Origin: Burkholderiales bacterium
GTDB lineage: Bacteria > Pseudomonadota > Gammaproteobacteria > Burkholderiales > SG8-41
Reading direction: 5' to 3'
Assembly: GCA_005800795.1 (NCBI GenBank)
Contig: SYEN01000053.1
Span: 1 to 32,978 of the forward strand
Length of the DNA stretch: 32,978 bases
In this document: one piece after another, positions 1,175 to 24,301 of the stretch
Layout: every line of letters starts with the position of its first letter
Position numbering within the stretch: the first letter of the stretch is position 1
Notes under the pieces: generated by a model
What the model saw: the letters and a program-made list of their open reading frames with translations, nothing else
The model's database searches: none
Told to the model about the DNA's origin: nothing
Translations under genes and position numbers: made by a program

Positions 1175-2316
1175 ATGATTAACGTCGTTCGACATTGGAG
1201 CAGTGCGGTGCTGGCTGCTGCGGCGCTGATGTTGCCGAGTGCAGCGCACGCCGTGGGTACTGCGGCGGGCACGACCATCAGCAACTCGGCGACCGCGACT
1301 TACAACATCAACGGCGTTCCGGCCACGCCGGTGATCGGTTCGGTGGCGATCCGCGTGGACGAAATCATCCGCGTCGCGGTTACTGCGCCAGCCACGCAAA
1401 CGCCGGTGGTTGCGGGCGATGTCAACAAGGTGCTGACCTTCCGCGTCACCAACACCGGCAACGGTGCCGAGGCCTACAACCTGATTGCCAATCGCGCGGT
1501 GGGCGGCGATAACTTTGATCCAGCGGCAGGCACTGCAGGGAGCCTGTTTCAGGACACCAACGGCAACGGCGTGTTCGATGCGGGTATCGATCTTGCCGTG
1601 CCGCTGGTCCTCGGTGTGCCGCAACTGACATTGAATCCCGATGTGGTCACCACGGTTTTTGTGGTGTCCAACATCCCCGCCGGGCCGACCAACGGCCAGA
1701 CCGGTATCGTGTCGTTGACTGCACAGGCCGCTACGGCGGGTGCAACTGCCGCTGGCGTGGGCGTTGCGCCAGGCACAATCCGGCCAACCTCGGTACGCCT
1801 TCAGTGGGTGGCGGTACAGTGGACGCGGTGGTGGGCGCAGGCCCCGGCGGTGCAGCGGATTCCGGTGCGGATGATGCCTCCAATGGCACCTACATCATTG
1901 CCGCTGTCACGGTCACCGTTGACAAAGTGGTGCTGAACGTCACCAACCCGATGGGTGTGACCAGTGGCCCCTGTAACGTGGCGATCCCGCCTGCGGGTTG
2001 TACGGCATTCGTGCCGGGCAGTGTCATCGAGTACCAGGTCACTGTGACAGTCAGTGGCACCGGTACCGCGCAGGCCGTGACCATCAGCGACAACGTGCCC
2101 GCGAACACCACCTGGGTCGCGGGCAGCATTCGCGCCACCACCACCACGCCAGCGGTAACGCCGCTGAGCGCCAAGACCGATGTTGCGGATGGCGACAACG
2201 CCAGCTGCGTGGGTTGCGGCAATGCCGCGGGCACCATGATCGCGAACTTTGGCGACATCACGGTTGCCGGTGCGCCGATTGCCAACACCGTGACCTACAA
2301 AGTCACCATCAACTAA
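1175..2316 (+). pseudogene. Subunit A: secreted DUF11-like protein (about 380 aa when repaired), split by an apparent 1-nt deletion near 1781-1782
   Basis: RBS AAGGAG then ATG at 1175; Sec signal ending AHA; mature N-terminus VGTAAGTTISNSATATY; DTNGNGVFDAG Ca-binding-like loop. Protein-like sequence moves from the 1094 frame to the 1804 frame at ATC-C^G-GCC-AAC; inserting T gives GTILANLGTPSVGGGTVDAVVG. The C-terminal Ig domain ends TVTYKVTIN. Could also be a sequencing error. Confidence 0.8.
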
Positions 2317-2341
2317 TCACTCACCCAACGGAGGTAACACC

Positions 2342-2845
2342 ATGCAAAACATGTTTCGTTATTTCGCGACTGCCGGGTTTTCCGCTTTGCTTGCGGGCAA
2401 TGTGCTTGTTGCCCGAGCGCAGAACGTCGAGCTCGTCACCAAGGCCGAGAAAGAAATCGAGGTCGTTGAGAAAGGCGCCAAGGTCAAGAAGCTGGCGCCG
2501 CCGGAGAAAATGGTGCCGGGCGACGAGGTGGTTTACACCGTCTCGTACAACAACAAGACCGGCAAGCCCGCCGAGAAAGTGTTGATCACCAATCCGGTGC
2601 CGAAGTACACGCGCTACAAAGACGGTAGCGCGACGGGCGACAACACCGACATCACGTTCTCCGCCGACGGCGGCAAGACGTTCGCCACACCGGACAAACT
2701 CATCGTCACGATCAAAGACAAGAGCGGCAAGGACATCACGCGCCCAGCCGCCGCGGCGGAGTACACCCACATCCGCTGGACGCTCAAACAAAACGTCGCG
2801 CCGGGGCAAGCAGGCTCGGTGCGCTTCCGGGCGGTGATCTTGTGA
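2342..2845 (+). CDS. Subunit B: small exported single DUF11-like domain protein (putative chaperone/cap)
   Basis: RBS GGAGG; signal peptide ending ARA; VPGDEVVYTVSYNN, ITNPVP and IRW motifs; ends SVRFRAVIL; rich in Lys and Glu. Confidence 0.85.
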   Translation: MQNMFRYFATAGFSALLAGNVLVARAQNVELVTKAEKEIEVVEKGAKVKKLAPPEKMVPGDEVVYTVSYNNKTGKPAEKVLITNPVPKYTRYKDGSATGDNTDITFSADGGKTFATPDKLIVTIKDKSGKDITRPAAAAEYTHIRWTLKQNVAPGQAGSVRFRAVIL

Positions 2846-2941
2846 CGCCCGCCACAGATTTTGGTTTTCGGTTTTTTGGTTTCAGTTTTTTCGATTGGAG
2901 GTTCGTATCATGAAGTTCAGTAGATCGCAGGAAGATGTTCA

Positions 2942-2957
2942 TAAGTGTTTGTTTTTA
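2942..2957 (-). promoter_or_regulatory. IHF-like AT-rich site upstream of subunit C
   Basis: Reverse complement is TAAAAACAAACACTTA, close to WATCAANNNNTTR; related copies at 17797, 24267, 26721 and 32222. Confidence 0.45.
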
Positions 2958-2990
2958 TTAATTTTTTTATTTAATCACAAGGAGCAAGCC

Positions 2991-4343
2991 ATGAAATACT
3001 GGAGTAGTTGGTATCGAAGTGCCTTGGCCGGCATAGCATTAATTGCCGGCTTGGGATTGCATTCAACGGTGGCCTTTGGCCAAGCTGCAACGTCGCAATA
3101 CCTGGCGGGCGGCTCGTTTACCAACGGCGCCGGCACGGGCCAGGTGTCAGCCAACACCGATGTCACCAACCAGGCCACGCTGAGTTACACCATCAGCAGC
3201 ACGGCGCAGCCCAACATCACCAGCAACACCGCGACCTTCAAGGTGGACAACCTGGTGCGCGTGGTGGTGGCGGCAACCGACACGGCGCATACCGTGGTGG
3301 CGCCTGGCGCGCTGGCGCAGGTGACGACTTTTACCGTCACCAACACCGGCAACGCCAATTAGGATTACAAGCTGGATGCGGGTAACCTCGCTTCAGCCCA
3401 AACCCTGACCTACGGCGCGACGACGTACACCGACTCGTTCGACGGTTTGTCATGTCAGGCGTTTGCTGAAACCGGTGGCGGCGCGGGCTATCAGGCCGGC
3501 TCCGACACCAATCAGGCGATTGTCAGTCTGGCGCCGAACGCCTCGCGCACGGTGTATGTGGTTTGCAACATACCGCCCGCGCCGGGTTTGACCTCGGGTG
3601 ACGCCATCGTATCGCTGCTGGCGACCACGTATGATGCCACCAGTTGCGTAGCTTCTACCGGCGTCTGCGCCAGCGGCCTCACCACGCAAAACACCGCCAG
3701 CGCGGATAACCAGACTGCGGTTGACGTGGTATTTGCTGATGGCGCGGCTGCGTCTCCCGCAGTAACGGGCGATGCCGTGCGCGACGGCAAGCATGCTGCG
3801 GTGGATGTGTTCCGCATCGCCAACGCCAGCGTGACCGTGGCGAAATCGGTGACCACGCTGTGCGATCCGTTTAACTTCGCGGGCAACGGCACCACGGTGT
3901 TCCCGAAAGCCATCCCCGGTGCTTATGTACGGTATTCGATCCAGATTACCAACGCGAATACGGCAACGGCTTCGGCGACATTGGCGACCATCACCGATAC
4001 GCTGAATACCAACCTCACGTTCGATACGAACCTGATTACCGGTAATGCGACCACCTGTGATGCCACCACGCCGGAAAGCGCGGGTAATGCGTTCAAGCTG
4101 ACTTGCGCCGGCACCACCGGCCGGGCCTGCACGACGCCGGTGTTCTACACCAGCGCAGCGGATGCTGACTCCATCGGCATCTCGGGTGCGAACATCACGG
4201 CGAATCTGGCGACGGCATTGCCTCAGGTGGGCACCCCCACGTGTCCGAACGTCGGCACGCCGAGTGGCGCGGGGACGTATTGCGCGGGTGAATTAAAACC
4301 GGGCGAGACCGTCACCATCTTCTTCAACGCGATTATCAAATAA
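2991..4343 (+). pseudogene. Subunit C: secreted DUF11-like protein (450 codons) interrupted by an in-frame TAG at 3360-3362
   Basis: RBS AAGGAG then ATG at 2991; Sec signal; ORFs 2895-3362 and 3447-4343 are in the same frame, and the reading continues TNTGNAN*DYKLDAGN, parallel to subunit A TNTGNGAEAYNL. Ends GELKPGETVTIFFNAIIK. Confidence 0.85.
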
Positions 4344-4384
4344 TCGCGGGCGGGAAGCGTAAAACGTAAGGCGCTGACAGCGGC

Positions 4385-7300
4385 ATGATCGCCCTGATCA
4401 CACGTAACCTCTGGCTGTGGCTCAGCCTGCTGGCGATGCTCGTTTCGAGCATCGCCGGGGCTGCCACGCCCAGCGGAACGGTGATTACCAATACGGCCAC
4501 GGCAACGTGGCGGATAGGGGCGAGCACGGTCAATGCCAGTGCAACGAAGCAGGTCGCGGTGTCACCGTACGCGGTGGGGCCGGATTTAAGCATCAGTCTT
4601 GCCGGCCCGGCGCAAGCCGGCCCCGGCGCCACGCTGGTGTGGAAGGCAGTCGCGGCAAATACAGGCCCCTCGGTGGCGGACGGTGCGCAGGTGACATTCA
4701 CCGTACCGCCGGGGGTTACCAATGTCAGCGGCTTGTGTTTAGTGTTGACCAGTGGCACATGCGGCGCCGTTACCGTGGGTACGCCCACGGCGGCCGGCAC
4801 GCCTGTCACTGTAAGTTTGGCCAACTTCCCAGTCGGCGCGCGCATCGAAGTGACGTTGCGGGGCACCGCACCGGCGGCAGTGGGTGAGTTGATTCATCAG
4901 GCGCAGATTTCGACAGGCAGTCTTGTCGATCCTACGCCGCTCAATAACGTGGCAACGTCGAAGACGAACATCGCTGCCGGGGCCGCCAATACCGGAACAC
5001 TTTCCGGCCGTGTGTGGCTCGACGTCAACCACGACCGTGTGTTCACGTCAGGTGAAATGCTGTTCGAGGGGTTTGTGGTGCGGGTGTACGATGCCGCGGG
5101 CACAACGCTCGTCAGACAGGTCGCCACTGGCGCCAACGGGCTGTATTCGCTTGCTGGTCTGCCGGCGGGCGTGAGTTATCAGATCGAGTTCCGTGACCGT
5201 GCGGGCAATGTCGTGTTCGGTCTGCCGGTAACGTCGGAGTCAGCGGGCGTGGGCGCAGGGTTTGCGCAGACCACGTCGTGCGCTACGCTGCGTGAAACTA
5301 CCGCGCCAAACGTCATGGTGCCGATGGCTGGCAACTGTTACAGCATGACCACCGGCGGATCGACCGCGCAGGTGCAGCGCACCGGCCGCACGCTGATATT
5401 CCTGCAGGCGGGCGACAACGTGATTGAACAAAGTCTGCCGCTGGATCCCGCCGGCGTGGTGTACGATTCAGTGACGCGTCAGCCCGTGGCGGGCGCCACG
5501 GTTACCTTCAGCGGCCCGCCGGGGTACGACCCGGCGCAGCATCTGTTGGGCGGCGCTGCGAATTCGAATCAGATCACGGGCGTGGATGGCTTCTATCAGT
5601 TCCTGCTGGTGGGCGGCGCGCCAGCCGGTACCTATACGCTGACGGTCACACCGCCTGCGGGCTATACCTCGCCGTCGCAAATACCGCCGAATCCGCAGCT
5701 CGACCCCACCGGTTTGGGTAGCGGCGGCGTCTATCTGGTGCAGGCGCAGCCGGGGCCTCCCACCGGCATCCAGCCGACGACTTACCACCTTTCCTTCAGT
5801 CTGGCGTTGGGCGATCCGAACGTGATTAACAATCACATTCCCATCGATCCGCCGGGCGTGGGCGGCACGCTGATTCTGACCAAGGTTGCGAGCAAAACCA
5901 TCGCGTCGGTGGGCGATTTTGTGCAGTATCAACTGGCGCTGTCGAATCCTGGCAAGGCACCGGTGGCGGGCGTGACGGTGAGCGACCGCTTGCCGCCGGG
6001 CTTCCGCTTCCGTCCGGGCACGGCGCAGATCGGCAAGGTGGCCGTGGCCAATCCGGCGATCTCAGCCGATGGCCGCACGCTGACGTTCACCATCGGCACG
6101 GTGTTGCCGGGTGCGGCGGCGATTGATATTCGCTACGTGACCGAGATTACCGTGGGCACGTCGCTGGGCGACGCGGTCAACAGCGCGCAGGCCACGGGCG
6201 CGGGCGGCGCGCGTTCGCTCAATGCACGCGCCACCGTCAATGTGAAGGAAGACCTGTTCCGCAGCCGTACCATTCTGATGGGTCGCGTAATCGAAGTCGG
6301 CGCCAGCGGGCCGAAACTGGCGCAAGGTGTTGGCACTGTAAGCGACGCGCCCGCGATCACCAGCAGTGCGGCCGGTCTGTGCAACCCGGAACAACACCTG
6401 GGCAAGGGTATTGAGGGTGCGCGCATTTTCATGGAAGACGGCGCGTATATCCGCACCGACAAGGAAGGTAAATGGCATATCGACGGCGTCAAGCTGGGCA
6501 CGCACGTGGTGCAGCTCGACGTGAAATCGCTGCCCGATGGTTACGAAGCCGTGCTGTGCGAAGACAATACCCGTCACGCGGGCCGCGCTTTCTCGCAGTT
6601 TGTGAACGTGCGCGGCGGCACGATGTGGCGCGCGGATTTCTATGTGCGCAACACTGGCAAGAGCAGCAACGGCTATGAAGCCGGACAGCGGCTGACAGTG
6701 CGCGCCGGCGAAGGCGTATTGAAGGCGACGCTGGAACTGAAAGGTGTGACCGCCGCCGTGCGCAACCTGTCGGCCACGGTCGCGCTGCCCGAAGGCATGA
6801 CCTACGTGCCAAACAGCGCGCGCATGAATGGCGGCGCGTTCGCCGAGCCGGAAATCAGCAACAACATACTGGTGTTTCGCGCGGGCGATACCAGCGCCAC
6901 GTGGAAAAAATCACTGACCTTCGATGTAAAAGGCGTGCCAGGCGCTGGCGCCGCGATGCAGTCAGTCGCGCAATTCCAGAGCGCCGATGGCGAAACCCGC
7001 CGCCTGCCGCCGGCGAGCGCGCCGCTGGCGGCACTGGGTAAATCGCAAATGCAGTCGGTGAGCGAACCAAAAATTATTCAATATAATCACATAGTTAAGG
7101 AAACAACACCTGCGGCGCCCGTCACGCCCGCAACCTCCGTTGCGCCTGCAGCAGCGCAACCGAACGTGAATGATCTGAACATCTACGCGCCCGGCTCGGA
7201 GAAATTCGACACCAATTGGTTGGCGACCGTCGCGCCGGGGCTAGAAGTGGTGTACCCGGCGGAAACCTTCATCCCCGGCACCAACGCGATCAAGGTGTTC

Positions 7301-10300
7301 GTCAAGCACGATCCGGCGCACCAGATCAAACTGACCGTCAACGGTGTGCCGGTGCATCGGCTCAATTTCGACGGCAACGATCACAACGCGCAAAAAACCG
7401 TCGGGTTGTCGCGCTGGGGCGGCGTGGGCTTGATCGACGGCGCGAATAAAGTCGTGGCCACCGCAGTGGATGCGGCAGGTAAGGAAGTGGGCCGCGCCGA
7501 GCGCATGATTCACTACTCGGGCGCGGGCGTCGAAGGCCGTCTGGTGAATGATGCCTCGGTGCTGGTTGCCGATGGCCGCACCGCGCCGGTGGTTGCCGTG
7601 CGTATTTTCGACCGCGAAGGCAAACCGGTGCGTCATGGCACGGAAGGTGAACTAGCGATTTCCGCACCCTATCAATCGCTGGAAGTGGTGCAGGCGCGTG
7701 ATTCGCGTCCGCTGCTCAACGCTGCCGGCAATCAGGCGCGCTGGCGCGTCACCGACGATGGACTTGCGCTGATTCGCCTGCAGCCGACCACGACGTCGGG
7801 CGAGGTGTCGCTGACGCTGAACTTCCAGGGCCGCCCGCCGCAAATTATTCGCGCGTGGTTGAAGCCCGAAATGCGCGAATGGATACTGGTGGGTCTGGGT
7901 GAAGGCACCATCGGCCAGCGCAAGCTGTCGGGCGCGGTGGAGAATCTGCCGGCGGACATGGCCGACGACAAGTTGTGGAAAGACGGCCGCGTGGCGTTTT
8001 ATGCCAAGGGACAGGTCAAGGGTGAATTCCTCGTGACCATGGCCTACGATACCGACAAGGAACGTAAACGTCTGGGTGGGGCGCAAGGCGATCGCCTGCT
8101 GCAAGGTATCGATCGCAAACAGTACTACACCGTCTACGGCGACAGTAATAGCGCCCAACACGACGCCGCCAGCACGCGCAAGCTGTATCTGAAGATTGAA
8201 AAGAATCAGTGGTACGCCATGTTCGGTGATTACAACACCGGCATGACCGTGACAGAATTGTCGCGTTACTCGCGCACGCTGAACGGCATCAAGAGCGAAT
8301 TCCGCGGCACCAATGTGTCCTATACCGCGTTCGCCACCAAGACCGCGCAGGCCTTCGTCAAGGACGAGCTGCGGCCCGACGGTACATCGGGTTTCTACCG
8401 GCTCACGCGCGGCAACATCATCCCCAACAGCGAAAAGGTGACGATTGAAACGCGCGATCGTTTCCGCAACGAGGTCATCGTCAAGAGCGAGCCGCAATCG
8501 CGCGGCATTGATTACGACGTTGACTACGCGCTGGGCACGTTGATTTTCCGCAAGGCGATCACCGGCAAGGATCAGAATTTCAATCCGATGTACATCGTGG
8601 TGGATTACGAGTCGGAAGACCCCACGCGCGATGAGCGCGTCACCGCCGGCGGCCGTGTGGCGGTGCGCACCAGCGACGGCAGGGCCGAGGCCGGCGTCAG
8701 CGCGATTCGTGAAGGTAGCATCGGTGCACGCGGCGATTTGAAGGGCGTGGACGCCACGGTGCAGATCGACGACAAGACCAAACTGCGCGCCGAATACGCG
8801 CACAGCAGCCGCGAGCTGGCCGGCACGACGGCATCGGGTAACGCCTATGTGATTGAAGCACGCCGGCAGGATGGCAATGTGGCCGCCACCGCTTATGTGC
8901 GCGGTCAGCAGGGCACGTTCGGGCTGGGCCAACAGGCCGCGGCAAATGGTGGCACCACCAAGGTGGGCGGAGACGTGTCGGTGAAAATGAGCCCCGAAGT
9001 CACCATCAATGCACGCGCGCAGCACGAGCGTGTCGAAAACGCCGGTGCGCAAGCAGAACGCTCGCAGATCGAGGCGCGCGCCAATCTGGTCAGGCCCGAG
9101 TACGGCGCTTATGTAGGTGGACGCATTGTGCGCGATCAAACCTCGACCGGTGAGACGCAGAATTCCAATCAACTGGTGGCGGGCGGCGCGCACAAATTCA
9201 TGGATGGCCGCTTGAACCTGCGCGTCGATTCCGAGATCAATCTCGGCAGCAGTGGCGGCAGCAACGTCAACAGCACCGACTTCCCGCATCGCGTGCGCGT
9301 GGGCGCCGACTACAAGGTGACCGACAAGCTGTCGCTGTTCCTCGATCAGGAGCTGACCTTTGGCGACCGTGAAAATACGCACACCACGCGCATCGGCACC
9401 AAGACCAAGCCGTGGGACGGCGCAGAAAGCGCCAATTCGCTCAACCTGCGGCAGACACCCGACGGCCCGGTGGTGTCCACCACCAGTAGCATGACGCAAG
9501 CCATGCGCCTGTCGCCGGAACTAACGGTGAACGTGGGTATGGATCGCACGAACACGATACGCAAGCCCGGCACCACACAACTGAACCCGAACGTGCCTGC
9601 CGCGCAGGGCGTGAACGCCACGGCGGGCGCGGCCTCGCAAAGTATTCTGCCGCCTGCGGGTATTGCCACTGCGCCAGTGGAGGATTACACCGCCGTGTTC
9701 GCGGGGGCAACGTGGAATCAGGGGCCGTGGGGCGCCACCGCGCGCGCCGAGTACCGCCACGGCGATACCACCAACAAGGTGAATGTCGCGGGCACTCTGC
9801 ACCGCGACATTGCATCGGGTCAGGCGATTGCCGCGACAGCGCTCTATAGCAACACGCGTGGCGGCGCACTGGCGGACAGCAAGACGCTGGATCTGCGCCT
9901 CTCCTACGCGTTCCGGCCTATCGACAGCCTGTGGGTGGTGTTGAGCCGCCTCGATTACATCCAGGAAGAATCCAATGCCACCGGCGGCGCGCGCAGCCAC
10001 CGCATGGTGATGAACAACAATGTCAACTACCAGTTCAATCGCAGCACGCAGATTGCGTTCCAGTATGGTGCGAAATACGTGTTCGACAACTTTGATCGCG
10101 TCAGTGCCTCGGGCTTTACCGACATCTATGGCGCCGAAATGCGTTACGACTTCGGCAACCGCTTCGATATCGGCGCGCACGCGGCGCTGCTGAACTCGTG
10201 GGGATCAGATGTGCACGTGGCGTCGTACGGCGCATCGGTCGGCTTCGCGCCGGTGCGCAACCTGTGGCTGGGCGTGGGCTATAACTTCGCGGGCTTCCGC

Positions 10301-10429
10301 GACCGCGATTTCACCAGCGCCAACGCCACCGCCAAGGGCTGGTATCTTTATCTGCGCATGAAGGCGGATCAGGGCGAGAAGGACACCACCACCAAGCGCA
10401 AGTTGATGTTTGAAGAAGCGGCGAACTGA
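4385..10429 (+). CDS. Subunit D: 2014-aa exported protein with DUF11/CnaB-SdrD-like/carboxypeptidase-regulatory-like Ig domains and a large predicted C-terminal outer-membrane beta-barrel
   Basis: Signal peptide ending AGA; DUF11 motifs (LILTK, VSDRLPPG, AVNSAQA); GRVWLDVNHD SdrD-B-like start; GVVYDSVTRQPVAGATVT; roughly the last 570 aa are alternating amphipathic strands ending GVGYNFAGF..GWYLYLRMK. Confidence 0.85.
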   Translation: MIALITRNLWLWLSLLAMLVSSIAGAATPSGTVITNTATATWRIGASTVNASATKQVAVSPYAVGPDLSISLAGPAQAGPGATLVWKAVAANTGPSVADGAQVTFTVPPGVTNVSGLCLVLTSGTCGAVTVGTPTAAGTPVTVSLANFPVGARIEVTLRGTAPAAVGELIHQAQISTGSLVDPTPLNNVATSKTNIAAGAANTGTLSGRVWLDVNHDRVFTSGEMLFEGFVVRVYDAAGTTLVRQVATGANGLYSLAGLPAGVSYQIEFRDRAGNVVFGLPVTSESAGVGAGFAQTTSCATLRETTAPNVMVPMAGNCYSMTTGGSTAQVQRTGRTLIFLQAGDNVIEQSLPLDPAGVVYDSVTRQPVAGATVTFSGPPGYDPAQHLLGGAANSNQITGVDGFYQFLLVGGAPAGTYTLTVTPPAGYTSPSQIPPNPQLDPTGLGSGGVYLVQAQPGPPTGIQPTTYHLSFSLALGDPNVINNHIPIDPPGVGGTLILTKVASKTIASVGDFVQYQLALSNPGKAPVAGVTVSDRLPPGFRFRPGTAQIGKVAVANPAISADGRTLTFTIGTVLPGAAAIDIRYVTEITVGTSLGDAVNSAQATGAGGARSLNARATVNVKEDLFRSRTILMGRVIEVGASGPKLAQGVGTVSDAPAITSSAAGLCNPEQHLGKGIEGARIFMEDGAYIRTDKEGKWHIDGVKLGTHVVQLDVKSLPDGYEAVLCEDNTRHAGRAFSQFVNVRGGTMWRADFYVRNTGKSSNGYEAGQRLTVRAGEGVLKATLELKGVTAAVRNLSATVALPEGMTYVPNSARMNGGAFAEPEISNNILVFRAGDTSATWKKSLTFDVKGVPGAGAAMQSVAQFQSADGETRRLPPASAPLAALGKSQMQSVSEPKIIQYNHIVKETTPAAPVTPATSVAPAAAQPNVNDLNIYAPGSEKFDTNWLATVAPGLEVVYPAETFIPGTNAIKVFVKHDPAHQIKLTVNGVPVHRLNFDGNDHNAQKTVGLSRWGGVGLIDGANKVVATAVDAAGKEVGRAERMIHYSGAGVEGRLVNDASVLVADGRTAPVVAVRIFDREGKPVRHGTEGELAISAPYQSLEVVQARDSRPLLNAAGNQARWRVTDDGLALIRLQPTTTSGEVSLTLNFQGRPPQIIRAWLKPEMREWILVGLGEGTIGQRKLSGAVENLPADMADDKLWKDGRVAFYAKGQVKGEFLVTMAYDTDKERKRLGGAQGDRLLQGIDRKQYYTVYGDSNSAQHDAASTRKLYLKIEKNQWYAMFGDYNTGMTVTELSRYSRTLNGIKSEFRGTNVSYTAFATKTAQAFVKDELRPDGTSGFYRLTRGNIIPNSEKVTIETRDRFRNEVIVKSEPQSRGIDYDVDYALGTLIFRKAITGKDQNFNPMYIVVDYESEDPTRDERVTAGGRVAVRTSDGRAEAGVSAIREGSIGARGDLKGVDATVQIDDKTKLRAEYAHSSRELAGTTASGNAYVIEARRQDGNVAATAYVRGQQGTFGLGQQAAANGGTTKVGGDVSVKMSPEVTINARAQHERVENAGAQAERSQIEARANLVRPEYGAYVGGRIVRDQTSTGETQNSNQLVAGGAHKFMDGRLNLRVDSEINLGSSGGSNVNSTDFPHRVRVGADYKVTDKLSLFLDQELTFGDRENTHTTRIGTKTKPWDGAESANSLNLRQTPDGPVVSTTSSMTQAMRLSPELTVNVGMDRTNTIRKPGTTQLNPNVPAAQGVNATAGAASQSILPPAGIATAPVEDYTAVFAGATWNQGPWGATARAEYRHGDTTNKVNVAGTLHRDIASGQAIAATALYSNTRGGALADSKTLDLRLSYAFRPIDSLWVVLSRLDYIQEESNATGGARSHRMVMNNNVNYQFNRSTQIAFQYGAKYVFDNFDRVSASGFTDIYGAEMRYDFGNRFDIGAHAALLNSWGSDVHVASYGASVGFAPVRNLWLGVGYNFAGFRDRDFTSANATAKGWYLYLRMKADQGEKDTTTKRKLMFEEAAN

Positions 10430-13400
10430 TGGACAACGTGACAGACAAGTGGCGGTTGTATCGTGCTGAAGCCATGAGAAACCAGTGTGTGCGGATTTTG
10501 CTGCACATGGTATTTTTACTTGCGGGCCTGACCGCGTCGTTGCAGGTGCCGGTGGCGCGGGCAGAAGCTTTTTACACGATCACCAATGCGGGTATCTTCA
10601 GCGTCGATACGCTCGACGGGGGCCCGCCGGTGCAGCTGCTGGCGTTCGCGCAGACGCTTGCTGCCACGCTGGCAGTGCGTCCCAGCGATGGCATGCTATT
10701 CTGGCTGGACAGCACGGGAGCCAACCCGGGGTTGTGGCGCTGGGATCCGGCCAATCCCACTTTGCCGGCGGTGTTTGTTGGCACGCCGGGAGCCACCACC
10801 ACCGGCGTGATCCGATTGGCGTTTGACGCGGCCGGAACGCTATACGCGATGAATCCCGGACCCTCGACATTGTGGACACTGGATCCCAACACGGGCGGCA
10901 TCCTGACCGCTACGACGGCCAGCGGTGCCGTGGTACCGGCGGGTGGCGACATCTGCCTGCACCCGGCTACCGGCGTGCTATACATGGTTGCTCAGACGCA
11001 GTTGTTCACCATCGACAGCTCGGCTGTGGTGACGCTTCTGGGTAACGTGACGTTTTCTCCCGCGCTGCCCGCGACACCGTCAATGACCGGGTGCGCATTT
11101 GATCGCAATGGCCGACTGGTCGTTTCGCCGGCCACATCGGCCTCGCTGCACGCCATCAATATCAGTACGCTCGTTGCCACGCCGCTTGCCGTGTCCACGG
11201 GTTTTACCGCGGGAGCTATGGGCGATCTAGCCACCGCGCCGGGCCGCGTTTCGGACTTGAGACTGACAAAGACTGCCAGCAATCTCACGCCCGGCAATAC
11301 GGTGAGCTTCACGCTCACGGTGACCAATAATGGTCCGGATCGCGCGACGGACGTGCGGGTGCGAGACGTGCTGCCGGCTGGCCTGACGTTTGTCTCCGCG
11401 ACGGCAAGCCAGGGCACCTATTCGACAGCAGCGGTAGGGGCTTTTCCCGCCGGCACCTGGCGCATAGGTACCATGAACAATGGGGCTACAGCAACATTGA
11501 CAATCAATGTATCGGTGACCGGGGCGACAGCGATTACCAATATGGCGCAGATTTCGCATTCGGATCAATTCGACCCCGATTCGACTCCCAATAACAGCGT
11601 TGCGAGTGAAGACGATCAGGCGTCTGTGGTGATCGTGCCCAGTCCGGACTTGCAGATTACCAAAGTGGCGGTCGGAACCTTTACCGTGGGCACGAACAGC
11701 ACGTACAGGATATCTGTCAACAATCTGCTGGGTAGTGCCGCCACAAGTGCGGCCTACACGGTAACCGATACCATGGTACCCAGCCTGACCATTGTGGGAA
11801 CGCCGAGCGGCCCGGGCTGGAATTGCTCAGCATCAACATCGACGCAATTGAGCTGTACCAGCAGTACCGCTATTGCGGCCGGCGGAACCAATCCTGGCCT
11901 GATTACGCTGACCGTGCTGCCCAGTGCTGCGGCGTCACCCAGCGTTACCAATGTCGCCACGGTAGCCGGCGGGGGCGAACCAGCGTCCAATAGCGGCAAT
12001 AATAGTTCAGGCGTGATCACAACTGCCGTGTGCGCGGGCAGTTGCCCTGACCTGGTGGTCAACAAAACGCTATCGGTGGCGAGTCTGACAGTCGGTGTCA
12101 ACACGTCTGTTTACACCTTGAGCGTCACCAACACCGGCGGCCTTACGACAGGCACATCGACGTATACCATTACCGATAACCTGCCCGCCGGGCTTACTCT
12201 GGCAGCTGCACCCACGGCTGGTCCAGGCTGGACATGCACACCCAATGCCGGAGCGCTCGAAAACGTGGTCAACGGTACCAAGGTTATTTGCAGCCGCAGT
12301 ACCGCCGTGGTACCCGGAGGCACGTCTTCAACGATTACGTTCACGGTGATCGTCGGCAATGCGGCGGCACCGAGCGTCACCAACACGGCCAGCGTTTCCG
12401 GTGGTGGCGAGCCCACAAGTGCCACCGGAAACAACAGCACCAGCCTAGTTACGCCAGTGATTGATTTCGATTTGCAGACCAGCAAGACCAAAACAACCGC
12501 CGGGAACTTTAACTTGGGCGTGACCACTGACACGTACACCATCGTGATCAACAATATCGGTGGCCGCAATTCCACGGGCACCTATACTGTCACCGATGTA
12601 TTACCGACCGGTCTCACGTTGACCACGGCAGGCGGCGGTGCCGGATGGGCGATAGGCACAGGTTGGACTTGCGCGGCGAACACGCCTGCGGCGGGCGATA
12701 ACGTGGCGGGCGGTTCCCGTGTTGTATGTACCCGGTCCACCAGCATTAACTCGGGTGCCGCGTCGACCAGTATTGTATTTCCCGTCACGGTGGCAGTAGC
12801 CGCAGTGCCCAGCGTCAGCAATACTGCTACCGTCAGCAACCCCAATGAATCGGCGAATCTGCTGACGAATAATTCGTCAACGGTCGTGACATCGGTGAAT
12901 GCGCCGGATCTCATGGTATCGAAGTCGCACACCGGCAATTTCACCGTGGGCCAAACGGGCACGTACACCATCACTGCGTTCAACAACGGCGCGCAGGCGA
13001 CAACGACCGCGACCGTGACGGTGACGGATACTTTGCCAGCGGGACTGGTCTATACCTCGACCAGCGGTAACGCTACGGGCACAAACTGGACTTGTGCCGC
13101 AGCCCCGGTTTCGCCGGCAACCACGCAAACGGTGACGTGTACCACCACGTCGCGGGCCGCCAATACGGCTTACCCACCGATTACGTTGCCTGTGACTGCG
13201 ACGACCGCAGGAACGCTGACCAACAATGTCAGTATCGCCGGCGGTGGCGAGCCTGCAGTCAACAATGGAAGCAACACCGATTCCGATGTCACGCAGGTGT
13301 TCGTCACGCCGACAGTCAGCAAGGCGTTTTCTCCCGCCAGCGTGCAGGCGGGTGTGACTTCCCAACTGACCATCACCATCAATAATCCGGCTACGTTTGC

Positions 13401-15027
13401 GATTACCGGTGTGGCGGTGGTCGATCCGTTTCCCGCGGGTATGTCGGTGACAGCCACGCCGGCGTTTGTGACCACGAATTGCGGCACCTTCACTGTGATT
13501 TCCGGCAACACGCAGGGCGACACGCTGGTTTCCCTGACCGGCGGAACGATTCCCGCGTCGAGCAGTTGCACGATACAGGTGAATGTCAGCAGCACCACCG
13601 TCGGAGCGAATGTCAACATCGTAGATAACGTCAGCACAACCAACAGTGGCACTGGTACGCAAGCGGCGGCGGCCAGAACCGCCACCTTGACAGTGACAGC
13701 GCCCGGCTCGCCCGTTTTGTCAAAGTTGACTGCGCCCGATCCTGTAGGCGTGAACCAGCTTGCCACAATGACGTTCACGATCAATAACAAGACTACGGCC
13801 ACCACCGACATGGGATTTACCGATAATTTTCCTGCCGGCGTGGTGTATCGCGGTACCACGAGTATGAGTTGTACCAGTACCGGTGGCACTGCCTTTTCTC
13901 TGACCGAACAGACCGGTGCGGCGAATGTAGCGGGCGCAGCACTGGTGGCAGGCACCAGCACTGGCATCAAGGCGCTGGGCATCGATCTCGTAGGCAGCGC
14001 GTCGTGTACGATCGTCATTACGGTATCCAGCGCGACGCCGGGCTCGTATCTGAACTCCAGTACCGCGCCCACGGCCGCAACCAGCAATATTCCCTCCGGC
14101 TCGTTGCAGGGCGGACTTACCGCGCCCGGTATAAACGACACGCTGGTGGTGGTCGGCACCACGCTGACCAAGACCTTCAGCCCGTCAACCGTGGTTATCG
14201 GCCAATCGTCCAATTTGACCTTCGCCATCACCAACGGCGCGGGAGCGCCACAGCAAGGCGGGCTGGCATTTACGGAAACGCTGCCCGCTAATGTGGTTGT
14301 GGCGTCCGCGCCATCGGCGACGCAGTGCGGCGGCACGGTGACGGCCCCGGTTGGGCTGGGCACGATTACGTTCAGCGGTGGCGCCATGGCATCGGGCCTC
14401 GCGGTTTGTAACATAGTGGTACCCGTCAGGTCCGGCCTCGCAGGCACGTATAACAATACACCTGCCAACGTAACTGGTGTATCTGCCGGCATGACCAATA
14501 GCGCCAACGCGACCTTGACGGTGAACAGTGGAGTGGCTTTGAATTTTGCAAAGTCGCTGAGGACGGTTTGCGATCCGCAAAATTTCGCCGGGAACGGCAC
14601 GACGATTTTCCCCAAAGCGATTCCAGGCGCCTACGTGCAATACACGCTTACCATTTCCAATGGCGCGGGGGCCGTGAATTCAGCGAATCTAACCACCATC
14701 ATCGACGCGCTAGACCCGAACCTGAGTTTTGATGTCGATCTGCGCACGGGCACTCCCACCACTTGCGCGACGTCCCCGCCGGAGAACGCGGGTGGCAGAG
14801 GTTTCGTGCTGACGTGCATGGGCGGCACGCGTAACTGTACGACGCCGATATACTTCACCAGCGCATCGGGTGACGATGCCATGGGGATTTCGGGTTCATC
14901 CATCACATTGACGTTTGGCGACAGTCCAGGTGCGCCCAAGGCGCTGCCTACAGAAACCGGCTACGGCCCGGGCGAGCTAGAGCCCGGTGAGTCAATCACG
15001 ATAAGATTTAACACCATCGTCAAATAG
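10429..15027 (+). CDS. Subunit E: 1532-aa exported adhesin-like protein with an N-terminal beta-propeller, about 8 DUF11-like Ig repeats and a C-terminal incomplete Ig domain
   Basis: ATG overlaps the D stop (TGATG); alternative ATG at 10474; signal ending ARA; blade-like repeats (LAFDAAGTLY, LWTLDPNTG, AFDRNGRL); repeated DLxxxK..YTITVxN..xTDxLPxGL..WxC..C..VxNxA units; C-terminal domain paralogous to that of subunit C. Confidence 0.9.
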   Translation: MDNVTDKWRLYRAEAMRNQCVRILLHMVFLLAGLTASLQVPVARAEAFYTITNAGIFSVDTLDGGPPVQLLAFAQTLAATLAVRPSDGMLFWLDSTGANPGLWRWDPANPTLPAVFVGTPGATTTGVIRLAFDAAGTLYAMNPGPSTLWTLDPNTGGILTATTASGAVVPAGGDICLHPATGVLYMVAQTQLFTIDSSAVVTLLGNVTFSPALPATPSMTGCAFDRNGRLVVSPATSASLHAINISTLVATPLAVSTGFTAGAMGDLATAPGRVSDLRLTKTASNLTPGNTVSFTLTVTNNGPDRATDVRVRDVLPAGLTFVSATASQGTYSTAAVGAFPAGTWRIGTMNNGATATLTINVSVTGATAITNMAQISHSDQFDPDSTPNNSVASEDDQASVVIVPSPDLQITKVAVGTFTVGTNSTYRISVNNLLGSAATSAAYTVTDTMVPSLTIVGTPSGPGWNCSASTSTQLSCTSSTAIAAGGTNPGLITLTVLPSAAASPSVTNVATVAGGGEPASNSGNNSSGVITTAVCAGSCPDLVVNKTLSVASLTVGVNTSVYTLSVTNTGGLTTGTSTYTITDNLPAGLTLAAAPTAGPGWTCTPNAGALENVVNGTKVICSRSTAVVPGGTSSTITFTVIVGNAAAPSVTNTASVSGGGEPTSATGNNSTSLVTPVIDFDLQTSKTKTTAGNFNLGVTTDTYTIVINNIGGRNSTGTYTVTDVLPTGLTLTTAGGGAGWAIGTGWTCAANTPAAGDNVAGGSRVVCTRSTSINSGAASTSIVFPVTVAVAAVPSVSNTATVSNPNESANLLTNNSSTVVTSVNAPDLMVSKSHTGNFTVGQTGTYTITAFNNGAQATTTATVTVTDTLPAGLVYTSTSGNATGTNWTCAAAPVSPATTQTVTCTTTSRAANTAYPPITLPVTATTAGTLTNNVSIAGGGEPAVNNGSNTDSDVTQVFVTPTVSKAFSPASVQAGVTSQLTITINNPATFAITGVAVVDPFPAGMSVTATPAFVTTNCGTFTVISGNTQGDTLVSLTGGTIPASSSCTIQVNVSSTTVGANVNIVDNVSTTNSGTGTQAAAARTATLTVTAPGSPVLSKLTAPDPVGVNQLATMTFTINNKTTATTDMGFTDNFPAGVVYRGTTSMSCTSTGGTAFSLTEQTGAANVAGAALVAGTSTGIKALGIDLVGSASCTIVITVSSATPGSYLNSSTAPTAATSNIPSGSLQGGLTAPGINDTLVVVGTTLTKTFSPSTVVIGQSSNLTFAITNGAGAPQQGGLAFTETLPANVVVASAPSATQCGGTVTAPVGLGTITFSGGAMASGLAVCNIVVPVRSGLAGTYNNTPANVTGVSAGMTNSANATLTVNSGVALNFAKSLRTVCDPQNFAGNGTTIFPKAIPGAYVQYTLTISNGAGAVNSANLTTIIDALDPNLSFDVDLRTGTPTTCATSPPENAGGRGFVLTCMGGTRNCTTPIYFTSASGDDAMGISGSSITLTFGDSPGAPKALPTETGYGPGELEPGESITIRFNTIVK

Positions 15028-15186: not shown

Positions 15187-16158
15187 ATGGCTCACGCTAT
15201 ACGCATCCACCAGCACGGTGGCCCCGAAGCGTTGCGGTGGGAGGAAGTCAGCGTCGGTGACCCCGGCCCCGGCGAAGTGCGCGTGCGTAACACCGCCATC
15301 GGTTTGAATTTTATCGACACCTATCAACGTTCGGGCCTGTATCCGATGCCGTTGCCGTTTACCTGCGGCTCGGAAGGCGCGGGCGTGGTCGAGGCTGTCG
15401 GTCCGAAAGTGAAAGGCCTGAAGAAAGGCGACCGCGTAGCGTATGCCAATCCGATTGGCGCGTATGCCGAAGTGTTGCTGCGGCCGGCTGAAAAGCTGGT
15501 GAAAATACCTGCCGGTGTCAGCGATCAGACCGCTGCCGCGATGATGTTGAAGGGGATGACGGCATGGTACCTGCTGCGCCGCACCTTCAAGGTGAAGAAA
15601 GGCGACACGATTCTTGTGCATGCGGCCGCGGGCGGCGTCGGCCAGATTCTGTGCCAGTGGGGCAAACACCTGGGCGCCACAGTGATTGGCACCGTGGGCA
15701 GCGAAGGCAAGGTTGCGGCGGCGAAAAAAGCGGGCGCCAAACATGTCATCGTTGCCGAGCGTGAAGTGGTGTCCAAGCGCGTGCGCGAAATCACCAAGGG
15801 CAAGGGCGTGCCGGTGGTGTACGACGGCACTGGCAAGGAAACCTTCATGGATTCGCTGGATTGTTTGGCGCCCCTGGGCACCATGGCAAGCTACGGCAAC
15901 GCCTCCGGCGCGGTGCCGCCGTTCAACATCGGCATCCTTGCGCAGAAAGGCTCGCTGTTTCTGACGCGCCCCACGCTGGGCAATTACACCGCCACGCGCG
16001 CTGATCTTGAAACCGCCGCGCGCGATCTGTTCTCGGTGGTGAAAAAAGGCGCGGTCAAAATCGCCATCAATCAGACCTATCCGCTGATCGAAGCCGCGCA
16101 GGCGCACCGCGATCTCGAAGGCCGTAGAACCACCGGCTCTACTGTGCTGCTGCCCTGA
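15187..16158 (+). CDS. qor: NADPH:quinone oxidoreductase (zeta-crystallin/MDR family)
   Basis: AIGLNFIDTYQRSGLYP, HAAAGGVG and KGSLFLTRPTL motifs; RBS AAGGAG. Confidence 0.92.
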   Translation: MAHAIRIHQHGGPEALRWEEVSVGDPGPGEVRVRNTAIGLNFIDTYQRSGLYPMPLPFTCGSEGAGVVEAVGPKVKGLKKGDRVAYANPIGAYAEVLLRPAEKLVKIPAGVSDQTAAAMMLKGMTAWYLLRRTFKVKKGDTILVHAAAGGVGQILCQWGKHLGATVIGTVGSEGKVAAAKKAGAKHVIVAEREVVSKRVREITKGKGVPVVYDGTGKETFMDSLDCLAPLGTMASYGNASGAVPPFNIGILAQKGSLFLTRPTLGNYTATRADLETAARDLFSVVKKGAVKIAINQTYPLIEAAQAHRDLEGRRTTGSTVLLP

Positions 16159-16508
16159 TGCGCGCAGCAGTGCTGTTAGTGTGCGGCATGGGTGCGGCGT
16201 TTGCGCCGTGGCCTGTTCACGCGCAAGCGCAAAAACCCGCGCCGGTGAAAGAACGTTCCAGCGGCGCGGCATCACCGCAACTCTTGCAGCAGCAGCGCGC
16301 TACGGTCAGCTACCGCGACGTGACACAGGCGGCGTACGAATCCAAATTGGCCGAGCAGGACGTGCTGAATTTGCAGGACGCCTACAACGCCGCACGTGAG
16401 CGTTCCGATGCGCTCAAGGTGGAACTCGACAAGGCGCTCAAGGCACGGGATGCTGCGCGTGCAACCGAGGCTGCGGCGCGCAAGCGGTATGAAGAGGCGT
16501 TAAAGTAA
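16158..16508 (+). CDS. Small exported coiled-coil hypothetical protein
   Basis: TGATG overlap with qor; signal peptide ending VHA; Ala/Glu/Lys/Arg-rich helical C-terminus. Confidence 0.7.
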   Translation: MRAAVLLVCGMGAAFAPWPVHAQAQKPAPVKERSSGAASPQLLQQQRATVSYRDVTQAAYESKLAEQDVLNLQDAYNAARERSDALKVELDKALKARDAARATEAAARKRYEEALK

Positions 16509-16557
16509 CTGATAGCGTCAGTCCCCGGCCCCGTCACAATCATTACGGAACTGAAAC

Positions 16558-17787
16558 GTGTTGCCTTTGCATAATCTGCCGCCACCGCCCGCCGGTGCAC
16601 CACTCGCACTGTTAAAGGGCATTACCGTGCTCGATCTCACCACGTCCATCGCCGGGCCTTATGCCGCGATGCAGTTGGGTGACATGGGAGCCGAAGTCAT
16701 CAAGATCGAACGTCCCGGCAAGGGCGATGATTGCCGCGCGTGGGGGCCGCCGTGGCTCGACGGCGAATCGCTGTGGTTCATGAGCGTCAACCGCAACAAA
16801 CAAAGTGTCACGCTCGATTACACCAGCGAGGCGGGACGCGCCGTGCTGCATGACATCGTGCGCAAGGTGGATGTGGTGATCGTCAATCTCACCGGCCGTG
16901 TGCAAAAAAAGCTCGGCGTCGATCACGCGGCGCTGTCGGCGGTGCGGCCGGACATTGTGCATGTGTCGCTGTCGGGCTTCGGGCTCACCGGCGCCCGCCG
17001 CGATTTCCCCTGTTATGACTTGATTGCCGAGGGCTACAGCGGGGTGATGGATTTAACCGGCGAAGCTGAAAATCTGCCGCAGAAAATCGGCACGCCCGCC
17101 GCGGATTTGATAGCCGGCATGGATGCGGCTTACGCCACACTTGCCGCGCTGTTCGACCGTCAGCGTACCGGCAAGGGCCACAAGATCGATATCTCGATGA
17201 TCGACAGCATGACGCGCTTCATGTCGCCACGCATCGTGCCGTATCTGGGCGGAGGGCCACTGCCCAAACGCACCGGCGCGCGAGACAGCGTGATTTCGGT
17301 GTATCAAACCTTCGATACGCAAGACCGGCCGATCACGCTGGGTCTGGGCAACGACGGCATTTTCAAACGTTTCTGGCAGGCAGTGGGTCAACCGGCTGTG
17401 GCGGATGATCCACGCTACGCCACCAATGCTGAACGTACTGCCGTGCGCCCGGAGCTGGTTGAAAAAATACAGGCCGTACTGCGTACACAATTGCGCGAAT
17501 ATTGGCTGAAAAAGTTTGTCGAGCATAACGTGCCGGCGGGGCCGGTCAACAGTGCCGAAGAAGTGGTGCGCGATCCGGAGTTGGTGGCGCGCGGACTGTT
17601 TTACACGGCAACCGCAGGCGCCAGAAAAATTCCGCAGGTCGGTTTGGGCATTGCGGTCGACGACAGCAACGCCACCTATCGCAGCGCGCCGCCGTTGTTG
17701 GGCGAGCATAACGATGTCGTGCTGGGCGGACTGCTGGGCTACGATGCCGTGCGAATTTCACAACTGAAAATCCAGAAAGTGATATAA
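16558..17787 (+). CDS. CoA-transferase family III (CaiB/BaiF)
   Basis: LKGITVLDLT..IAGPYA, GAEVIKIERP, NRNKQS, YDLIAEGYSG and PAAD (catalytic Asp) motifs. Confidence 0.93.
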   Translation: MLPLHNLPPPPAGAPLALLKGITVLDLTTSIAGPYAAMQLGDMGAEVIKIERPGKGDDCRAWGPPWLDGESLWFMSVNRNKQSVTLDYTSEAGRAVLHDIVRKVDVVIVNLTGRVQKKLGVDHAALSAVRPDIVHVSLSGFGLTGARRDFPCYDLIAEGYSGVMDLTGEAENLPQKIGTPAADLIAGMDAAYATLAALFDRQRTGKGHKIDISMIDSMTRFMSPRIVPYLGGGPLPKRTGARDSVISVYQTFDTQDRPITLGLGNDGIFKRFWQAVGQPAVADDPRYATNAERTAVRPELVEKIQAVLRTQLREYWLKKFVEHNVPAGPVNSAEEVVRDPELVARGLFYTATAGARKIPQVGLGIAVDDSNATYRSAPPLLGEHNDVVLGGLLGYDAVRISQLKIQKVI

Positions 17788-17789
17788 AA

Positions 17790-18569: not shown

Positions 18570-18589
18570 GGTCAACGTCAAAAACCTTG

Positions 18590-18609
18590 ACGCAGATAAA
18601 CGCAGATTA
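18590..18609. repeat. 10-bp tandem duplication ACGCAGATAA/ACGCAGATTA
   Basis: Directly visible in the intergenic space just before the REP-like hairpin. Confidence 0.6.
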
Positions 18610-18619
18610 AAAACCACAA

Positions 18620-18702
18620 CTGTCATTCCCGCGAAAGCGGGAATCCATAAGCCGTCTCAAGTGGCACTGTGTTATGGATTCCCGCTTTCGCGGGAATGAC
18701 AG
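18620..18702. repeat. REP/REPIN-like element: perfect 31-bp inverted repeat of the GTCATTCCCGCGAAAGCGGGAATCCA family
   Basis: CTGTCATTCCCGCGAAAGCGGGAATCCATAA (18620-18650) and its exact reverse complement (18672-18702), 21-bp spacer; each arm is itself a hairpin and contains the dRS3-like core ATTCCC-N8-GGGAAT. Confidence 0.92.
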
Positions 18703-18727
18703 GTTGGAGATTTCACGTAATCGCCTC

Positions 18728-21147: not shown

Positions 21148-21156
21148 GGATGCAAC

Positions 21157-21906: not shown

Positions 21907-21949
21907 TGTTTGTAAATATGTGTTTAATTGAATAATTTTAAGGCTCGCG

Positions 21950-23125: not shown

Positions 23126-23151
23126 AGGTGAAGCGTGAAAGGTGAAGTGAA
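23122..23151 (+). repeat. Five GTGAA-containing short tandem repeats spanning a stop/start junction
   Basis: GTGAA at 23122, 23128, 23135, 23142 and 23147; a similar tract lies at 21144-21168. Confidence 0.6.
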
Positions 23152-24262: not shown

Positions 24263-24301
24263 TCAATAAAAACAAATACTTATGAATAAACAAGAACGGC
24301 A

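Follow-up and report, generated by a model that had tools for sequence, protein, structure and literature searches.

Do the secreted proteins of a Gram-negative bacterium complete one another's immunoglobulin (Ig) domains at the cell surface, and are the joints so formed locked by covalent bonds? This question is raised by a cluster of five genes, here termed A to E, all lying on the plus strand and spanning positions 1175-15027 of a 32,978-nucleotide stretch of DNA from a Burkholderiales bacterium (contig SYEN01000053.1, assembly GCA_005800795.1; hereafter, the window). The window is a single contig of a metagenome-assembled genome (MAG), which is 62% complete and consists of 582 contigs. An earlier note on this DNA had proposed that the cluster encodes a pilus or fibre in which an Ig domain of the DUF11 family is divided between chains, with Lys and Asp at the C-terminus of one protein and the matching Asn in an N-terminal hairpin of another. 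We found this division to be real and strongly conserved: all three residues were present in A-type proteins at 78 of 80 loci (one of the two exceptions is cut by a contig end, the other has a Ser) and in 75/75 C-type proteins, and the donor Asn was kept in 62/65 D-type proteins, where two of the three exceptions are a miscalled start or a split gene. These counts cover loci from a species-representative genome collection together with two loci of the same genus. Judged by sequence, the split is far beyond chance.

The divided isopeptide domain

DUF11 has been renamed CLIPPER, a CnaA-like Ig domain in which Lys, Asp and Asn yield an autocatalytic, intramolecular isopeptide bond, as set out in the main text of PMC12617251, which places the triad of PDB 9IFR at Lys715, Asp748 and Asn806 and lists DUF7933 with a like triad. 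In an alignment of the full DUF11 repeats of E and D (alignment A6), Lys, Asp and Asn were invariant, as had been claimed for the complete repeats of E, and the Asn fell on the second-to-last strand. These internal repeats hold the triad inside one contiguous domain; the domains that close A, C and E do not. The last domain of A, B, C and E stops early, the chain ending right after a strand of the ...TVTYKVTIN or ...SITIRFNTIVK type, and the mature forms of A, C and D begin with an orphan hairpin, comprising the motif xIxNxA...[WYF] and a second strand behind the signal peptide (in C, a short extension comes first). On both points the earlier note was borne out, and the nine triad codons it had named were all in place.

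All five proteins start with a Sec-type signal peptide that has a site of the A-x-A type and no lipobox Cys (read by eye). In gene A (1175-2316), a candidate shaft subunit, the signal peptide (~1175-1252; cleavage between AHA and VGT, judged by eye) is followed by the donor hairpin GTTISNSATATY...SVAIRVD (1253-1360), whose Asn codon, AAC, lies at 1283-1285. The acceptor domain of A (1880-2313, start approximate), a DUF11 domain without the last two strands, bears Lys at 1924-1926 and Asp at 2089-2091 and ends in ...TVTYKVTIN. Gene C (2988-4343), a second candidate donor and acceptor subunit, has its hairpin, TDVTNQATLSY...TATFKVD, at 3147-3260 (Asn codon 3168-3170) and its acceptor domain, ending in ...TVTIFFNAIIK, at 3837-4340 (Lys 3843-3845, Asp 3996-3998). 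Gene D (4385-10429, 2014 amino acids) combines a signal peptide, the orphan donor hairpin GTVITNTATATW...KQVAVS (4466-4582; Asn codon 4490-4492) with a complete DUF11 domain next to it, an Ig-domain stalk and a predicted giant beta-barrel at the C-terminus. Gene E (10429-15027, 1532 amino acids), the candidate tip adhesin, is acceptor-only and consists of a head of DUF6923 repeats, Ig domains and a C-terminal acceptor domain (14521-15024; Lys 14551-14553, Asp 14704-14706) that ends in ...SITIRFNTIVK.

Since neither Asn nor Ala varied across an alignment of 65 hairpins (26 loci), the hairpin motif is not a chance resemblance. The motif was found in 57 distinct N-termini of D-type proteins, with Asn and Ala invariant in 46. 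Of 83 homologs of A, 79 have kept the donor Asn, 81 have kept the acceptor Lys and all 83 have the Asp, and an alignment for the C acceptor domain (47 sequences) showed Lys at 90% or more and an invariant Asp. The very last residue of A-type proteins (2311-2313 in the window) was Asn in 76/83 and Asp or Gln in the rest (alignment A1), a conservation that suggests a part for the free C-terminus in the joint.

Profile comparisons agreed with a cut domain to differing degrees. The C-terminal piece of A matched DUF11 over profile positions 14-78 of 114 only, at 19.0 bits (Pfam cut-off 24.6), and reached 32.8 bits with TIGR01451, above the cut-off of 24; C scored 18.5 bits with TIGR01451, under that cut-off. 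An acceptor profile aligned with that of the complete domain along the strands that carry the Asp (probability 93.7). The claim that the hairpin corresponds to the final DUF11 strands found weak support: hhalign placed the match on the Asn strand, and it was weak, extending over 11 columns at an E-value of 0.019. When the 65 hairpins, which are too short for such a scan, were run against Pfam at E-values up to 10, DUF7617 and DUF7507 were each matched once (E ~0.04). A PDB search with the hairpin profile gave nothing meaningful, and one with the acceptor profile gave Spa2 (E 0.013) and titin only.

Docking between chains or within one

What was seen directly is a conserved split, an order of genes, a set of domain families and a predicted barrel; from these we infer docking between chains, bond formation, subunit order, polymer length, an export route and a role for B. 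Separate secreted polypeptides would form a cell-surface stalk or fibre by means of a split CLIPPER (DUF11) Ig domain that is completed between chains. The donors A, C and D would supply a two-strand N-terminal hairpin with the triad Asn, and the acceptors A, C and E-type would supply a terminal DUF11 domain that has Lys and Asp and ends before the Asn hairpin. The hairpin of one chain would enter the open C-terminal domain of another, whereupon a Lys-Asn isopeptide would form by autocatalysis, just as within ordinary CLIPPER domains, and lock the joint. From tip to base, the order would be an E-type adhesin (at some loci), A and/or C, and D, whose hairpin would close the chain and whose barrel of ~32 strands would anchor it in the outer membrane and may serve as the export pore. 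The proposed role of B is to bind a hairpin reversibly, either as a periplasmic chaperone or as a non-covalent cap. In topology, such a structure would resemble a single long fibrillar adhesin that runs from N- to C-terminus into a barrel, but it would be made of separate chains.

D cannot complete itself, because its hairpin precedes a complete DUF11 domain (covering profile positions 9-112 of 114) and neither Pfam scans nor a reading of the sequence found a partial DUF11 domain in D. As donor-only D and the acceptor-only E-type proteins both lack the partner half in their own chain, pairing between chains is the simplest reading. Moreover, the core A-B-C-D offers three Asn donors and two Lys/Asp acceptors, so that the Asn of D, in order to react, would have to use the acceptor of A or C, which in turn would leave the hairpin of that subunit available to another acceptor. 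The placement of the hairpin at the mature N-terminus and of the cut domain at the C-terminus, in three paralogous families, resembles a tandem array cut out of phase. We thus consider assembly between chains to be somewhat probable, and a true long fibre to be conceivable, though on the doubtful side. It is likewise with some reserve that we put forward the fuller picture, namely, a pilus class of diderms whose subunits would ligate themselves through split isopeptide domains without sortase or usher-type catalysis, in which the hairpin of the barrel protein would end the fibre, D would also be the export pore, B would be a decoy acceptor and chaperone that cannot be trapped for want of Lys and Asp, and variable adhesins would join the tip via a common C-terminal acceptor domain.

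A number of points weigh against these proposals. The whole case is in silico work, and the likeness between the hairpin and the end of DUF11 is only weakly seen in sequence, in the 11 columns given above. Direct-coupling analysis (mean-field; 195 A homologs, Neff ~103), which was underpowered, gave no hairpin-acceptor signal: the top 400 coupled pairs in A included one that joins the hairpin to a position outside it and none that reaches the acceptor domain. The barrel model of D is of moderate quality, with the first ~140 residues of the fragment (7871-10426) modelled poorly, and the export route of the subunits is a proposed one. In addition, E-type genes are an optional extra, which counts against a working system of five genes, and A and C, the two donor-and-acceptor genes, are both broken in the present genome (see below). 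Further points of this kind concern a live rival, and are given with it.

This main rival holds that A and C close upon themselves: the hairpin of each would fold into the C-terminal domain of its own chain, yielding a discontinuous, stapled CLIPPER with domain 1 as an insert and no fibre, and only the hairpin of D would pair with another chain (E-type or B), or with nothing. When the intact A of G007, a genome of the same genus, was modelled (83 aligned sequences), a confident monomer was obtained (pLDDT 92.8, pTM 0.80), hairpin included (strands 8-15 and 27-34, pLDDT 88-96), which fits docking into its own chain. Closure of this kind is also sterically possible, because the linker between domain 1 and the acceptor domain is always 23-46 residues long in the 83 homologs and never short. 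Donor-strand pilins are a caution here, as their monomer predictions commonly self-complement. There is, moreover, a precedent for a discontinuous domain, GBS104-like_Ig, made of residues 137-211 plus 587-717, as described in the main text of PMC12617251. Fused A-A forms, which would be longer proteins, were not found at E<=1e-5 among 8000 candidates, although this is weak evidence.

On the other side, closure within the chain would leave the conserved Asn of D with B only, and no bond could form there, as the Lys is not conserved in B and an Asn occupies the position of the Asp. Losses of the triad residues were mostly uncoupled, which favours docking between chains: in three homologs (P0097, P0114 and L065), the Asn is lost while Lys and Asp are kept, in one (P0116) Lys is lost and Asn kept, and only P0119 has lost Asn and Lys jointly. 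Nor would this rival explain why, in three families, the two ends of the chain are precisely where the hairpin and the cut domain lie. We therefore regard closure within the chain as unlikely, yet to be taken seriously. Two further computations did not bear on the choice. A Foldseek search with the A model returned only generic tandem-Ig matches (TMq <=0.27), of no use for telling docking in cis from docking in trans. Complex prediction with G007 chains scored 0.81, 0.77 and 0.79 for the E acceptor domain, the D N-terminus and intact A; exchanging intact A for unrelated proteins gave 0.00 and 0.00, and exchanging the D N-terminus gave 0.82. We used these scores neither for nor against binding.

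A second rival accepts docking between chains and limits its extent. Here, one copy each of D, A and C, plus a cap (B or an E-type protein), would join in fixed order into a short hetero-oligomer, that is, a multi-chain fibrillar adhesin. It draws on the same split-domain evidence as the fibre; A and C are distinct, conserved paralogs in every complete locus, which suggests specific positions for them and not a single shaft subunit that repeats, and a D-A-C-B chain would suit a set of three donors, two covalent acceptors and B. At variance with it are the second C-type copies found at three loci (L024, L044 and L076) and the place of A at the head of the cluster, where fim and pap operons have their major pilin genes. 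With the tools used, a short chain and a polymer look alike; we deem this alternative rather improbable.

Finally, the view that there is no complementation at all, and that these are ordinary secreted multi-Ig, adhesin-like proteins whose C-terminal domains are complete seven-strand Ig folds and whose N-terminal motif is simply the first strands of the next domain, may appeal to the weak likeness of hairpin and DUF11, with 2/65 hairpins matching isopeptide-domain families, and to the seven to nine strands of DUF11 domains, some without the triad (main text of PMC12617251), but it fits poorly with hairpins whose Asn and Ala are invariant before three different kinds of domain, with the conservation of Lys and Asp even where the domain itself lacks an Asn strand, and with cut domains that all stop at the same strand, and we consider it very unlikely.

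The components and their state in the present genome

Returning to assembly between chains as the preferred reading, D is its candidate anchor, donor-only by sequence, and possibly an export pore as well. Its domains matched DUF11 (62.7 bits; cut-off 24.6) and TIGR01451 (68 bits), together with SdrD_B and CarboxypepD_reg (Pfam). For the C-terminal region (7871-10426; the last 852 residues), AF2 predicted ~32 long antiparallel strands (pLDDT 70.3, pTM 0.47), consistent with a large outer-membrane beta-barrel. Together with the 57 hairpin-bearing N-termini, this upholds the earlier description of D as a donor-only membrane barrel. A Foldseek search with the barrel retrieved generic large barrels (SlpA, LptD, SprA and FimD; TM 0.19-0.29 among these), the ESM Atlas labelled it 'outer membrane protein family protein', with neighbour clusters that share no Pfam family, and a PDB sequence search gave nothing below an E-value of 0.65. 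A distant second paralogous set of genes lies on the minus strand of G007 (L011; G007:C46:34000-50000), with ORFs at 1894-9276, 9429-12131 and 12221-13045. It encodes a D-like protein of 2460 amino acids with stalk and barrel, whose N-terminus, ...GTLINSQAFGTY, is a variant of the donor motif, and which is adjoined by a 900-amino-acid protein and a B-like protein of 274 amino acids.

The stop codon of D (TGA) and the start codon of E (ATG) share one base at 10427-10431 (TGATG), an overlap that suggests translational coupling of the anchor and tip proteins. The Ig domains of E gave five matches to DUF11 (222.2 bits) and four to DUF7933 (Pfam), and 95.5 bits with TIGR01451; E is annotated with five DUF11 and DUF7933 isopeptide-type Ig domains. 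A match to RrgB_K2N_iso_D2 (61.4 bits, NCBIfam) denotes kinship of fold only. E had been described as an acceptor-only propeller, of which the first half held and the second is weak, the sign of a propeller being the DUF6923 repeat match (E 4.5e-11). Acceptor-only E is present in the window and in G007, and at five or more further loci (L009, L014, L023, L028 and L078) a large protein with a Lys/Asp acceptor end adjoins the cluster. In four of these (L014, L023, L028 and L078), no donor motif xIxNxA was seen in the N-terminal 90 residues; at L009, where the gene looks split, the N-terminus was left out of this judgement.

Gene B (2342-2845) encodes a small secreted protein of 167 amino acids with a DUF11-like domain of acceptor shape, and follows A in all cases. 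It matched DUF11 over profile positions 4-60 of 114, at 23.8 bits (Pfam cut-off 24.6), and TIGR01451 at 30.3 bits. In an alignment of 81 B sequences, the motif TNPxP was kept (TNPVP in the window), Asn stood in place of the catalytic Asp and the Lys was not conserved. B is thus a variant devoid of catalytic residues and would fit a non-covalent cap or chaperone; a chaperone or cap had been proposed, without a claim about either residue. Stand-alone proteins of ~150-200 amino acids made up ~100 of the best 150 matches of B (representatives at 50% identity, counted by hand). The acceptor domains of large neighbours of the cluster mix C/E-type motifs (SDPFNG..NPK.IPGA) with B-type ones (SNNGG.TW, THIR, LRFRVRIN), as seen in the proteins at L014 12989-14764, L028 18359-20488, L023 6809-9451 and L009 3910-7230; B may be a stand-alone derivative of this mixed acceptor type that has lost Lys and Asp.

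As for distribution, homologs of A numbered 180 at E<=0.001 among 8000 candidates scored, and those that are named carry the labels 'uncharacterized repeat protein (TIGR01451 family)', 'DUF11 domain-containing protein' or 'hypothetical protein'. At least 562 of the 599 pattern matches listed from the species-representative genome collection encode a relative, and from the matches listed we kept 80 loci. These belong mostly to Sphingomonadales, with Burkholderiales, Gammaproteobacteria and one Nitrospirota MAG besides; intact A-B-C-D clusters are widespread in Alpha-, Beta- and Gammaproteobacteria, and the cultured carriers include Polaromonas sp. P2-4, Sphingomonas gilva, Sphingopyxis soli and Parasphingorhabdus flavimaris. 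The gene order was ABCD at 56 loci and ABCDE at 6 (62/80 together). Of the other 18, 13 (ABC, AB or A) were, by reading, cut by a contig end, and 5 appeared odd through overlapping or fragmented ORF calls. The conserved core, as read from these loci, is A-B-C-D, so that of the co-occurrence expected for five genes the first four bear it out, and E, which is present at only some loci, does not. All five genes, in the same order and with intact A and C, were found in two genomes of the same genus, G007 and G002, though E looks split in G002. Among 41 related genomes, B was present in 5, including the window's own (4/20 other genomes of the genus and 0/20 outside it).

The genome at hand differs from these two in both of its donor-and-acceptor genes, a fact overlooked in the earlier note. 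A tblastn search with the intact A of G007 matched 1253-1792 in frame 2 but 1786-2313 in frame 1, establishing that A, whose ORFs lie in two frames, is frameshifted near 1780-1792; C, the intact orthologs of which are 473 and 470 amino acids long, is interrupted in frame by a TAG at 3360-3362. At the frameshift, no indel relative to the window was seen in Logan contigs of three other studies (X3 record 6, X6 record 16 and X7 record 22), and the TAG was unchanged in contigs from two other studies (X3 record 10 and X7 record 25). The runs behind these contigs, dated 2024-2025, are labelled as freshwater, aquatic and estuary metagenomes. As the sequence at both lesions is the same in contigs of other studies, the lesions belong to the lineage and are not assembly errors, and since each gene carries one lesion and is otherwise open, the inactivation appears to be recent. 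B, D and E are intact while A and C carry these lesions, which looks like a recent, population-wide inactivation of both donor-and-acceptor subunits. The present genome could make, at most, a shortened D-E form.

Two ways of rescuing the broken genes were considered and rejected: no slippery heptamer for a programmed frameshift in A was visible by eye at 1766-1800, and recoding of the TAG in C is contradicted by the four other genes of the window, E included, that TAG terminates, making it an ordinary stop. D or C is spread over several ORFs at L017 (the chromosome of Polaromonas sp. P2-4, a complete genome), L078, L080 and L015 as well, which may reflect gene decay as in the window, or indel errors of long reads.

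Known systems and the surroundings of the cluster

The earlier note had recognised no characterised system with this layout, and our search of the full-text literature, with subscription-only papers and supplementary tables outside its scope, agreed with it in finding no description of the gene cluster or of split CLIPPER domains. The underlying principle, donor-strand insertion combined with an autocatalytic isopeptide between subunits, is already known from BsaA and has been proposed for archaeal threads, with neither of which the cluster shares a protein family, according to the family matches obtained. In the BsaA biofilm matrix fibres of Clostridium perfringens, as described in the available text of PMC11580942, the N-terminal segment of one subunit enters the sheet of the next and is locked without a sortase by an Asn-Lys isopeptide (N35-K74, with E56 as catalyst), a mechanism supported by mutants. 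The cluster has residues of this layout, a donor Asn and a receiving Lys with an acidic residue, placed and conserved accordingly in sequence. BsaA differs, by the same text, in its remote homology to TasA rather than to CLIPPER/DUF11, its monoderm host, its SipW signal peptidase and its secretion linked to type IV pili, as well as in having a single type of subunit and neither an outer-membrane barrel anchor nor a two-strand hairpin donor; and whereas BsaA is backed by mutants, the present cluster is known from sequence alone. Pfam scans of A-E and of the neighbours scanned detected no TasA-like subunit and no SipW-type signal peptidase. The archaeal thread protein Saci_0406, according to the available text of PMC9715654, likewise assembles head to tail by donor-strand complementation, with a proposed covalent isopeptide between subunits and no known sortase. 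The bond there differs from a Lys-Asn bond in that Asp24, through its N-terminal alpha-amine, is linked to Asn57 in subunit n+2, and the protein is archaeal, heavily glycosylated, without a Pfam domain and made by cells without an outer membrane.

Among Gram-negative systems, chaperone-usher pili (type 1 and P pili) are alike in having an acceptor-only tip, a donor-and-acceptor shaft, an operon-encoded large barrel and an accessory protein that is small and Ig-like, and the order of genes A to E resembles that of fim. They differ in that the donor of the cluster is a hairpin with a reactive Asn and not a single strand, in its putative covalent joints, and in an anchor that is itself a donor; ushers have 24 barrel strands, as opposed to the ~32 predicted for D. 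In keeping with the earlier note's remark that hallmarks of chaperone-usher and type IV pili are missing, neither a PapD-like chaperone nor an usher of the FimD/PapC family, nor any sortase, type IV pilus or secretion component, was found by Pfam and NCBIfam in A-E or in the nine flanking ORFs scanned, and the Foldseek match of FimD to the D barrel was a generic one (TM 0.22-0.23). Type V pili of Bacteroidota, which are built from lipoprotein precursors through strand exchange mediated by a protease, differ in that the signal peptides of A-E lack the lipobox Cys and no protease gene was seen among the neighbours scanned. Classical autotransporters (type Va) share an N-terminal stalk and a C-terminal barrel with D, yet A-E gave no autotransporter match in Pfam, and ~32 long strands were modelled, as against a 12-strand barrel.

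CLIPPER fibrillar adhesins such as PDB 9IFR belong to the same family and have the same triad, of which E and D hold complete copies. The bonds described for them are intramolecular, whereas in A, C and E the triad of the terminal domain is split over two chain ends, and the words 'split', 'truncated', 'SpyCatcher' and 'strand complementation' are absent from the main text of PMC12617251. Sortase-assembled pili of Gram-positive bacteria and the SpyTag/SpyCatcher pair also have covalent isopeptides between Ig-type domains of separate subunits. The cluster differs from them in having no sortase, LPXTG or cell-wall anchor: its chains end in ...KVTIN, ...AVIL, ...AIIK and ...TIVK, with no LPXTG-type sorting signal, and the downstream genes scanned are metabolic, without a sortase. 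SpyTag/SpyCatcher is, furthermore, an artificial split of an isopeptide domain; that of the cluster would be a natural one, in a diderm.

If the joints do form between chains, the cluster would be, so far as the literature searched shows, the first fibre system of Gram-negative bacteria to be covalent and independent of sortase, a natural counterpart of the engineered chemistry of split isopeptide domains, and a new assembly route beside the known pilus classes. It would also assign a function to a large family that is labelled only TIGR01451 or DUF11 and is common among Sphingomonadales and Burkholderiales of fresh water, soil and the sea, and its hairpin/acceptor pairs could become orthogonal tags for protein ligation.

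As to the surroundings of the cluster in the window, two of the nine flanking ORFs (one upstream, one downstream) had no family match in these scans, and the other seven, all downstream of E, encode CoA-transferases, an acyl-CoA dehydrogenase, an enoyl-CoA hydratase and similar metabolic enzymes. They form part of a block of fatty-acid and CoA metabolism at 15187-25294, which comprises two family III CoA-transferases, an acyl-CoA dehydrogenase, an enoyl-CoA hydratase, an AMP-binding enzyme and dehydrogenases, and appears to be unrelated to the fibre genes. In G007, E is followed by ORFs of 323, 412 and 259 amino acids, equal in size to the ORFs downstream of E in the window.

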